This document shows positions 4,207-33,367 of a DNA stretch of 64,000 bases, one piece after another (the first letter of the stretch is position 1; each line of letters starts with the position of its first letter). Source of the stretch: Escherichia coli (lineage in GTDB: Bacteria; Pseudomonadota; Gammaproteobacteria; Enterobacterales; Enterobacteriaceae). The DNA lies in the NCBI RefSeq assembly GCF_003334765.1, contig NZ_QOWT01000012.1. The stretch is one strand, 5' to 3'. The translations under genes were made by a program, and so were the position numbers. The notes beneath the pieces are model-generated. The model ran no database searches and had not been told where the DNA came from. It saw nothing but the letters and a program-made list of their open reading frames with translations.

Positions 4207-4323
4207 ATTAGCCTTCCTTGTTTTTTAACAAGTTGATATTAGATTGTTATTTTTAAGTTACTGCTCACAAGAAAAAAGGCACGTCATCTGACGTGCCTTT
4301 TTTATTTGTACTACCCTGTACGA

Positions 4324-5760
4324 TTACTGTTCGCTTTCATCAGTATAGCGTTTTGCTTTGTAAGCCGGGTGCATCAGATTCTGTACGGAGAAAATATCGT
4401 CAAGTTCCGCTTCAGTCAACAGACCGCGTTCCAGAACGACTTCACGTACACTCTTACCGGTTTCGGCACAGATTTTACCCACGATGTCACCGTTGTGGTG
4501 ACCGATGAACGGGTTCAGGTAAGTAACGATACCGATAGAGTTGTAAACGTAACCTTCGCACACTTCTTTGTTAGCAGTGATGCCGTTAATGCATTTTTCC
4601 AGCAGGTTGTAGCAAGCGTTGGTCAGAATGTGAACGGATTCGAACATGGCCTGGCCAATGACCGGCTCCATAACGTTCAACTGCAGCTGACCTGCTTCTG
4701 CTGCCATGGTAACAGTGGTGTCGTTACCGATGACTTTGAAGCATACCTGGTTAACCACTTCCGGAACAACCGGGTTTACTTTAGCTGGCATGATGGAAGA
4801 GCCCGCCTGCAGTTCCGGCAGGTTGATCTCGTTCAGGCCGGCACGTGGGCCTGAAGAGAGCAAGCGCAGGTCGTTACAGATTTTGGACATCTTCACAGCC
4901 AGGCGTTTCAGCGCGCCGTGAACCATAACATAAGCGCCGCAGTCAGAGGTCGCTTCGATCAGGTCTTCAGCCGGTACGCATGGGAAGCCAGTAACTTCAG
5001 CCAGTTTTTTCACTGCCAGCGGAGAGTACTCTTTCGGCGTGTTCAGACCAGTACCGATTGCTGTTGCACCAAGGTTAACTTCCAGCAGCAGTTCAGCGGT
5101 ACGTTGGATGTTTTTCACTTCTTCTTTCAGCAGGATGCTGAAAGCGCGGAATTCCTGACCGAGGGTCATCGGTACTGCGTCCTGCAGCTGGGTACGACCC
5201 ATTTTCAGGATGTCCTGGAATTCGACAGCTTTACGTTCAAAGCCTTCACGCAGTTGGTTAATCGCATCTACCAGCTTAATCAGGGAAGAGTAAACTGCGA
5301 TACGGAAACCGGTCGGGTAGGCGTCGTTAGTGGACTGACATTTGTTAACATGGTCGTTCGGGTTCAGGTACTGATATTCACCTTTTTGGTGACCCATCAG
5401 TTCCAGACCGATATTGGCCAGCACTTCGTTGGTGTTCATGTTTACGGAAGTACCTGCGCCGCCCTGGTAGACGTCTACCGGGAACTGATCCATGCATTTT
5501 CCGTTGTTCAGGACTTCATCACATGCGGCAATGATGGCATTCGCTACACTTTTAGGAATGGTTTGCAGCTCTTTGTTTGCCATAGCTGCGGCTTTTTTAA
5601 CCATTACCATACCGCGAACAAATTCAGGAATATCACTGATTTTGTTGTTGCTGATATAGAAGTTTTCAATCGCTCTCAGAGTGTGAACACCATAGTAGGC
5701 ATCAGCTGGAACTTCCCTGGTACCCAACAGATCTTCTTCGATACGAATGTTGTTTGACAT
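4324..5760 (-). CDS. aspA: aspartate ammonia-lyase
   Basis: ORF 4324..5805 (-); fumarase/aspartase family (GSSxMPxKxN signature region [10 protein letters not shown]); start trimmed to [13 protein letters not shown] at 5760. Confidence 0.95.
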
Positions 5761-5942
5761 GTGAACCTTCTTTTTCAAGCTGCCAATGATTTGCTTTAAA
5801 CACACAGAATATATGTGGTTTCGAATGTTTTTCGACCGACGATTATCCCCTGCATCGACCGAATACCCGAGATCATATGCTGCTTGAGGATTTCTACCGT
5901 AATCTGGATCACTTTAAGTGTCGGTTTTTACCCCTTAATTAT

Positions 5943-5964
5943 TAATTTGTGAAATAGATCACCG
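5943..5964. promoter_or_regulatory. CRP-like dyad (TGTGA-N6-TCACC) in aspA/fxsA divergent intergenic region
   Basis: TGTGA at 5948..5952 and TCACC at 5959..5963 with 6-nt spacer; resembles CRP consensus TGTGAnnnnnnTCACA. Sequence match only. Confidence 0.3.
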
Positions 5965-6096
5965 CTTTGGGATTACTACCAAAAATAGTTGCGCAAACAT
6001 CTTGAAATTTTGCTAATGACCACAATATAAGCTAAACGCGATTCGCAACCCATTCAGGTAGCCGGGGTTAACCGGCTGCTATTACAGGAGAAACCT

Positions 6097-6573
6097 TTGC
6101 GCTGGTTACCTTTTATTGCCATTTTCCTTTATGTCTATATTGAGATTTCAATCTTTATTCAGGTTGCCCATGTATTGGGGGTATTGCTGACCCTCGTGCT
6201 GGTTATATTCACGTCAGTTATCGGTATGTCACTGGTACGTAACCAGGGCTTTAAGAATTTCGTGCTGATGCAGCAAAAAATGGCGGCGGGTGAAAACCCA
6301 GCGGCGGAGATGATTAAAAGTGTTTCGCTGATCATTGCTGGTTTGCTGCTTTTATTACCGGGCTTTTTTACCGACTTCCTCGGTCTTCTACTTTTATTGC
6401 CGCCGGTGCAAAAGCATCTGACAGTGAAGTTGATGCCGCATTTGCGCTTTTCTCGCATGCCTGGCGGCGGTTTTAGCGCCGGGACCGGTGGCGGTAATAC
6501 TTTTGATGGTGAGTACCAGCGAAAGGATGATGAGCGCGACCGCCTTGATCATAAAGACGATCGCCAGGATTAA
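6097..6573 (+). CDS. fxsA: inner membrane protein FxsA
   Basis: ORF 158 aa beginning MRWLPFIAIFLYVYIEISIF, TTG start at 6097; membrane N-terminus with acidic C-terminal tail. Confidence 0.85.
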   Translation: MRWLPFIAIFLYVYIEISIFIQVAHVLGVLLTLVLVIFTSVIGMSLVRNQGFKNFVLMQQKMAAGENPAAEMIKSVSLIIAGLLLLLPGFFTDFLGLLLLLPPVQKHLTVKLMPHLRFSRMPGGGFSAGTGGGNTFDGEYQRKDDERDRLDHKDDRQD

Positions 6574-7845: not shown

Positions 7846-8011
7846 GGGTTGATGTCCGATTGCGCCCAAATTTTGGGCAACTGCGTAGATTTTCGATGGT
7901 AGCACAATCAGATTCGCTTATGACGGCGATGAAGAAATTGCGATGAAATGTGAGGTGAATCAGGGTTTTCACCCGATTTTGTGCTGATCAGAATTTTTTT
8001 TCTTTTTCCCC

Positions 8012-31388: not shown

Positions 31389-33367
<1,979 letters not shown>

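Follow-up and report, generated by a model that had tools for sequence, protein, structure and literature searches.

The window, the whole 64-kb stretch of DNA that we analyzed, is part of an Escherichia coli K-12-type chromosome and carries the dcuA-aspA and fxsA-yjeH-groESL genes. RefSeq gives the gene order as cutA, dcuA and aspA on the minus strand, fxsA on the plus strand, yjeH on the minus strand, and groS-groL on the plus strand. The 701 bases surrounding the dyad that is the subject of this study match MG1655 at 100% and are present at 99% identity or more in 5419 of 5426 complete E. coli genomes. Window coordinates equal those of NC_000913.3 minus 4362567.

An earlier note on this DNA described the region between aspA and fxsA, which it took to be divergent neighbors, as a non-coding spacer of 290 bp that contains AT-rich tracts and a CRP-like dyad. 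The annotation bears out the divergent arrangement, and we found the dyad, TGTGAAATAGATCACC (hereafter dyad 1), exactly at the position given. The AT-richness also held, with 59.5% AT in the spacer and 48.1% across the window. The spacer is indeed non-coding, but its length is 336 bp (5761–6096) rather than 290 bp, because the annotated start of aspA is the ATG at 5760. The left edge of the earlier note, at 5806, derived from the longest open reading frame (ORF), which begins with a GTG at 5805. The Shine-Dalgarno sequence that precedes the ATG is invariant in all 24 aligned Enterobacterales species. Among 81 sequences, from the 80 species loci and the window, 33 have an in-frame stop codon no more than 15 codons upstream of the aspA ATG, so the extension to GTG-5805 is not conserved. 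A 45-amino acid ORF on the plus strand (5815–5952) was set aside, since it consists of non-coding-like, poorly conserved DNA that lies between conserved regulatory islands. Table 1 lists the features of the locus.

Table 1. Genes, sites and putative regulatory elements of the aspA–fxsA region (window coordinates)
Feature	Position	Strand	Remarks
aspA coding sequence	4324..5760	−	478 aa; RefSeq annotation; 100% identity to MG1655
aspA ATG (5760–5758) and Shine-Dalgarno AAGAAGGT (5771–5764)	5758..5771	−	RefSeq; invariant in the alignment
Inferred aspA transcription start, ~5865	5863..5867	−	Usual 6–8 nt from the −10; leader of ~105 nt
aspA −10 hexamer TATGAT, in block CAGCATATGATC (5871–5882)	5872..5877	−	24-species alignment: columns invariant or nearly so
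Dyad 2, CRP/FNR family, CGTAATCTGGATCACT (AGTGATCCAGATTACG in aspA orientation)	5898..5913		Centre 5905.5, ~−40.5 by inferred start
NarL heptamer TACCCCT, between the dyads	5929..5935	+	Sole TACYYMT match in the spacer; 0.15 expected
CRP site 1 (dyad 1, the dyad of the earlier note), TGTGAAATAGATCACC	5948..5963		Centre 5955.5; ~−90.5 from the inferred aspA start
Sigma-32 (RpoH) fxsA promoter: CTTGAAA (6001–6007), 13-nt spacer, CACAATAT (6021–6028)	6001..6028	+	Conserved islands
GC-rich hairpin in the fxsA leader, GUAGCCGG-GGUUAA-CCGGCUGC	6057..6080	+	Minimum free energy fold; 9 bp
fxsA coding sequence	6097..6573	+	TTG start; annotation; divergent from aspA in 78/80 species

Conserved islands of the aspA–fxsA spacer

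We scanned species-representative genomes with AspA and obtained 80 Enterobacterales loci, ranging from Escherichia to Yersinia, Serratia, Hafnia, Edwardsiella, Budvicia, Pantoea, Erwinia, and Pectobacterium. In 78 of these 80 loci, fxsA is the divergent neighbor of aspA. An alignment of the spacers of 24 species has a mean column identity of 44%, from which sharp conserved islands stand out. These islands consist of the fxsA start and its Shine-Dalgarno sequence; CTTGAAA and CACCATnT, both on the fxsA strand; the CRP dyad; AGTGATC; the block CAGCATATGATC; and the Shine-Dalgarno sequence and ATG of aspA. Within the CRP dyad, the columns G, A, and TCACA are invariant in the alignment.

Two of the islands, CTTGAAA and CACCATnT, make up the sigma-32 promoter of fxsA, which is conserved throughout the order and whose −10 element reads CACCATnT in most of the other species. 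A genomic-SELEX peak for RpoH within the spacer, among the strongest after ybeD, maps to position ~5978 of the window, in agreement with this promoter, and the fxsA promoter is in use as a sigma-32-dependent reporter. Downstream, the hairpin predicted in the fxsA leader lies immediately before the Shine-Dalgarno sequence, 17 nt ahead of the start codon, and is not followed by a run of uridines. When we folded the leaders species by species, most Enterobacteriaceae and Erwiniaceae had a hairpin of unrelated sequence in this position, and there was no asymmetry between the strands. RNAalifold found no consensus structure in the fxsA leaders, because the hairpins cannot be aligned by sequence, and Rfam returned no match for positions 5600–6300 at E values up to 1.

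Binding of CRP to dyad 1

To score dyad 1, we used a CRP matrix derived from 105 sites identified by ChIP-seq (Haycocks et al., 2015, Table 1; PMC4287617). The aspA/fxsA and yjfY/rpsF sites, both of which lie inside the window, were omitted from the training set. With this matrix, dyad 1 scores 14.5 bits, which ranks first among the ~64,000 positions of the 64 kb and exceeds the score of 68% of the 105 ChIP-seq sites, placing it above their median. In first-order random sequence, 0.37 matches with this score are expected per 64 kb and ~0.002 per 336 bp. The matrix scan that the earlier note had proposed as a check supports the CRP reading, with dyad 1 at the top of the window.

Published binding data point to the same site. 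In enterotoxigenic E. coli (ETEC) H10407, whose aspA/fxsA spacer is identical to that of the window, the motif under a high-confidence CRP ChIP-seq peak at aspA/fxsA is GGTGATCTATTTCACA (Haycocks et al., 2015; PMC4287617), the exact reverse complement of dyad 1. Sites were assigned in that study as MEME motifs beneath ChIP-seq peaks, not as footprints. The published peak centre lies 175.5 bp from dyad 1, while dyad 2 would give a distance of 125.5 bp. We rejected this gap as evidence against the assignment. At all five loci that we checked (aspA/fxsA together with yjfY/rpsF, malE/malK, fdhD/fdoG, and galP), the peak centres of Table 1 of PMC4287617 fall 169.5–196.5 bp below the listed motifs. 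Since a similar offset is present at every one of these loci, the gap at aspA reflects a systematic shift of the table, and users of these data should correct for it. With the published data re-checked in this way, dyad 1 is a high-quality CRP site that is occupied by CRP in vivo in H10407.

We also asked how the site is positioned in other species. The CAGCATATGATC block, which contains the aspA −10 hexamer, was matched at 9 or more of its 12 positions in 76 of the 81 sequences (75 of the 80 loci and the window), and the hexamer itself is TATGAT in 66 of these 76. In every one of the 76 sequences that keep the block, a CRP site scoring 10.9 bits or more lies upstream of the −10. The distance from the centre of the CRP site to the first T of the hexamer is 77.5–80.5 bp in 74 sequences and 69.5–70.5 bp in the other two, both from Pantoea, in which it is one helical turn shorter. 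The background rate for a CRP match at such a distance is 0.3%. The distance from dyad 1 to the aspA ATG varies among species from about −178 to −262, indicating that the CRP site is tied to the promoter and not to the start of the gene. The earlier note had also suggested a comparison with aspA promoter elements, and here dyad 1 keeps a fixed distance to a conserved −10 in 76 of 76 sequences.

Conservation within the dyad follows its half-sites. TCACA is present in 76 of 76 sequences and GTGA in 71 to 76 of them, and all four bases occur at the six positions between them. Fixed half-sites around a free N6 are the signature expected of a site for a CRP dimer. One might still suppose that dyad 1 is a chance match devoid of function, since the bare pattern TGTGA-N6-TCACA, with up to one mismatch, occurs three times in the 64 kb compared to 1.8 expected, a frequency not beyond chance. 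Dyad 1, however, is the top matrix match of the window and lies under a ChIP-seq peak, and its half-sites are invariant across six Enterobacterales families despite the mean column identity of 44% in the spacer. Conservation and the ChIP evidence together exclude a chance origin, the probability of which we consider negligible. The reading of dyad 1 as a CRP site in the earlier note is thus borne out by the matrix scan, by published ChIP-seq binding, and by a fixed position relative to the aspA −10.

Several other CRP- and FNR-like sequences are present elsewhere in the window. The sequence TGTGATGAACTTCAAA (62244–62259; 13.3 bits with the CRP matrix) lies 20–35 bp upstream of yjfY and is the motif under the yjfY/rpsF CRP ChIP-seq peak (Haycocks et al., 2015; PMC4287617). 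The 3′ part of yjfY itself contains a strong FNR-type dyad, TTGATATAAATCAC (61981–61994; 16.8 bits). A CRP-matrix match of 14.2 bits, TGTGCTGGGGCTCACA (31482–31497), lies where the starts of queG and nnr overlap; it is absent from the published list of CRP ChIP-seq sites and may be a chance match. In the yjeH/groS spacer, the CRP/FNR-like dyad TGTGAGGTGAATCAGG (7949–7964) lies no more than 1 bp from the centre of a published FNR ChIP-seq peak (~7956). Finally, the small RNA AspX, annotated in RefSeq at 4272–4384 on the minus strand, covers the 3′ end of aspA and the aspA-dcuA spacer, and this spacer has an FNR ChIP-seq peak (~4267) and a weak FNR-like dyad (4218–4231).

The aspA promoter and its proximal dyad

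From the conserved −10, transcription of aspA would be expected to start near position 5865 (Table 1). The supplements of Ettwiller 2016 contained no coordinate matching a start of aspA or fxsA. At the −35 position, the aspA promoter reads ACGGTA, which is not a usable −35 element; a poor match at this position is typical of activator-dependent promoters. With the conserved −10 and standard promoter spacing, we infer that dyad 1 is centred at about −90.5 and dyad 2 at about −40.5. Genome-wide, the commonest positions of CRP sites relative to transcription starts are about −40.5 and −92.5 (Haycocks et al., 2015; PMC4287617), and the two dyads at aspA would thus occupy approximately these modal positions.

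The predicted aspA leader contains further elements. On the minus strand, a sigma-70-like match, TCGAAA-16-TATATT (5808–5835), would give a start near 5801, and CACATATAT, near the same positions, is conserved in Enterobacteriaceae. A direct repeat of TTTCGA, with copies at 5819–5824 and 5830–5835, has a period of 11 bp. The centre of a published FNR ChIP-seq peak (~5835–5851) is close to the sigma-70-like match. The element at 5808–5835 could be a second, gene-proximal aspA promoter or a leader element.

Dyad 2 lies exactly 50 bp downstream of dyad 1, and the distance between the two is 49–52 bp across species. Its distal half, AGTGATC, is kept throughout the order, and the full dyad is found only in Enterobacteriaceae. 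With the CRP matrix, dyad 2 scores 12.8 bits (ln p −10.96), the fourth-best match in the window. For comparison, we scored the spacer with an FNR matrix derived from 63 predicted sites located at FNR ChIP-seq peaks (Myers et al., 2013, Table S6; PMC3688515), which themselves span 11.8–20.8 bits. Dyad 2 is the best FNR-matrix match in the spacer, at 9.0 bits (ln p −8.89), a score below the range of these ChIP-supported sites. Both of its half-sites begin with GT, and it reads as more CRP-like than FNR-like.

According to previous work, aspA is both a CRP and an FNR target. Myers et al. (2013; PMC3688515) place it among their FNR ChIP-seq targets, describe its FNR and CRP sites as distinct and CRP as a potential co-activator, and cite Golby 1998, Goh 2005, Gosset 2004, and Spiro for this gene. 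The aspA/fxsA region is also a known FNR target in Grainger et al., and a transcriptome paper describes aspA as activated by CRP and FNR and repressed by glucose. For the aspA/fxsA FNR peak, Myers et al. (2013; PMC3688515) give a PatSer value of −8.94. As the ln p of −8.89 that we obtained for dyad 2 reproduces this value, dyad 2 is probably the distinct FNR site that they describe. Its distance from the published FNR peak centre (~5835–5851) is 55–70 bp, which falls inside the scatter of this dataset at other loci (13–160 bp) but is not a precise fit.

These data also bear on the idea that dyad 1 is itself an FNR site and directly mediates the anaerobic induction of aspA. CRP and FNR dyads are related, an FNR ChIP-seq/ChIP-chip peak lies inside the aspA/fxsA spacer, and dyad 1 is the second-best FNR-matrix match in the spacer (ln p −8.2). 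Nevertheless, dyad 1 departs from TTGAT-N4-ATCAA at 3 of 10 positions, and both of its half-sites are GTGA rather than TTGA, with a G at the base that discriminates between CRP and FNR. This discrimination is reportedly due to a G/T base-pair difference described by Bell and colleagues in 1989. The FNR score of dyad 1, 7.6 bits, is far under the range of the ChIP-supported sites, whose minimum among the 63 is 11.8 bits. Across species, the median FNR score of dyad 1 is 5.2 bits, while its CRP score is always at least 10.9 bits. Moreover, the published PatSer value is fitted better by dyad 2, and Myers et al. (2013; PMC3688515) state that FNR and CRP have separate sites at aspA. We therefore find it highly improbable that dyad 1 is the FNR site, and the FNR matrix scan proposed in the earlier note speaks against that assignment. 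The note had considered dyad 1 to be consistent with catabolite or anaerobic control of aspA; the catabolite part, through CRP, stands, but anaerobic control maps best to dyad 2.

NarL was the third regulator for which the earlier note had suggested a scan. Dyad 1 contains no NarL heptamer. The TACCCCT heptamer nearby is not part of a 7-2-7 pair and, in the 24-species alignment, is kept only in Escherichia, Salmonella, and Citrobacter. NarL is given as a regulator of aspA in Table S9 of Myers et al. (2013; PMC3688515), and aspA does not appear as text in the MotifAdjuster supplement of NarL positions. Although Cra activation of aspA has been reported in one paper, inspection of the spacer by eye revealed no convincing Cra box.

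Because dyad 2 reads as more CRP-like than FNR-like, we considered that this site, an FNR site in the literature, might be a CRP-type site shared by both regulators. We hold this possibility only tentatively and think it rather doubtful. If it were correct, aspA would be a CRP+CRP tandem promoter under aerobic conditions, with FNR replacing the proximal CRP, or cross-binding at its site, under anaerobic conditions. The ansB gene of Salmonella has been reported to have a CRP+CRP tandem promoter.

A probable role of dyad 1 in the activation of aspA

Taken with its position, the binding of CRP to dyad 1 makes it very likely that this dyad serves the aspA(-dcuA) promoter as its upstream activator site. 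With a start near 5865, dyad 1 would be centred at about −90.5, and dyad 2, at about −40.5, would overlap the missing −35. When glucose is absent, cAMP-CRP on dyad 1 would contact a C-terminal domain of the RNA polymerase alpha subunit, and CRP at −90.5 would co-activate transcription with the dimer at −40.5. Under anaerobic conditions this proximal dimer would be FNR, as the literature describes, and in air it may be CRP. Through such tandem activators, expression of aspartase would be both catabolite repressed and anaerobically enhanced.

As the spacer is shared, CRP at dyad 1 might instead act on the divergent fxsA promoter, alone or in addition to aspA. Dyad 1 precedes the predicted fxsA start by ~80 bp, and both aspA and fxsA are listed for the CRP peak (Haycocks et al., 2015; PMC4287617). 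The distance from dyad 1 to the fxsA −35, however, ranges from 39.5 to 49.5 bp across species, most of a helical turn, while the distance to the aspA −10 is steady at 77.5–80.5 bp; the variable spacing argues against a phased role for CRP at fxsA. Contacts between CRP and the alpha C-terminal domain are independent of the sigma factor. A position of about −80 is, however, non-canonical for class I activation, fxsA is an established heat-shock (RpoH) gene, and we found no CRP effect on fxsA in the literature that we examined. For these reasons, a role of dyad 1 at fxsA seems unlikely, and we favor its function as an activator site for aspA.

The dyad itself is not new. It is the already documented CRP site of E. 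coli aspA: the locus and the 16-mer, published as the reverse complement GGTGATCTATTTCACA, are the same, with no difference between them. The promoter anatomy is of the ordinary textbook kind, and the earlier note made a correct re-discovery. Databases of the RegulonDB/EcoCyc type presumably place the aspA CRP site at −90.5, in agreement with the geometry derived here.

Among known promoters, the layout most resembles that of ansB. Scott, Busby, and Beacham reportedly showed in 1995 that FNR at −41.5 and CRP at −91.5 together activate ansB. When we scanned the region upstream of E. coli ansB, its FNR site, TTGTTTAACGTCAA, and its best CRP-like site were 50 bp apart. As at ansB, the aspA promoter has two CRP/FNR-family dyads 50 bp apart and lacks a good −35, and the two genes act in one pathway (asparagine to aspartate to fumarate) and respond to the same physiological signals. 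The sites differ in quality, however. The upstream CRP site is strong at aspA, at 14.5 bits compared to 5.9 bits at ansB, whereas the proximal site of aspA is a poor FNR site, at 9.0 bits compared to 12.3 bits, and is more CRP-like. The likeness between the two promoters is one of layout and spacing, and synergistic dependence of aspA on both activators is a proposal.

Dyad 1 also has the consensus of class I sites of the lac type, from which CRP, bound upstream, contacts the alpha C-terminal domain. With a start near 5865, it would share with them an upstream location on the helical face of −61.5, −71.5, −82.5, and −92.5, as well as dependence on cAMP. Unlike a simple class I promoter, aspA would have a second dimer at about −40.5 in addition to its site at about −90.5, and is better described as a tandem (class III) promoter. 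Both elements of this ansB-type layout were found, with dimers ~50 bp apart and the proximal one overlapping a weak −35.

These results have little significance beyond bookkeeping and unlock no open question. They do illustrate cleanly how deep the conservation of a tandem CRP/FNR promoter can be, with an invariant TCACA held ~78 bp from the −10 in six families, and the comparative geometry yields a precise prediction of the aspA start site. For the bacterium, dyad 1 would explain why glucose shuts off aspartase and, with it, the aspA-dcuA aspartate/fumarate route, which is used in gut colonization and as a nitrogen source.
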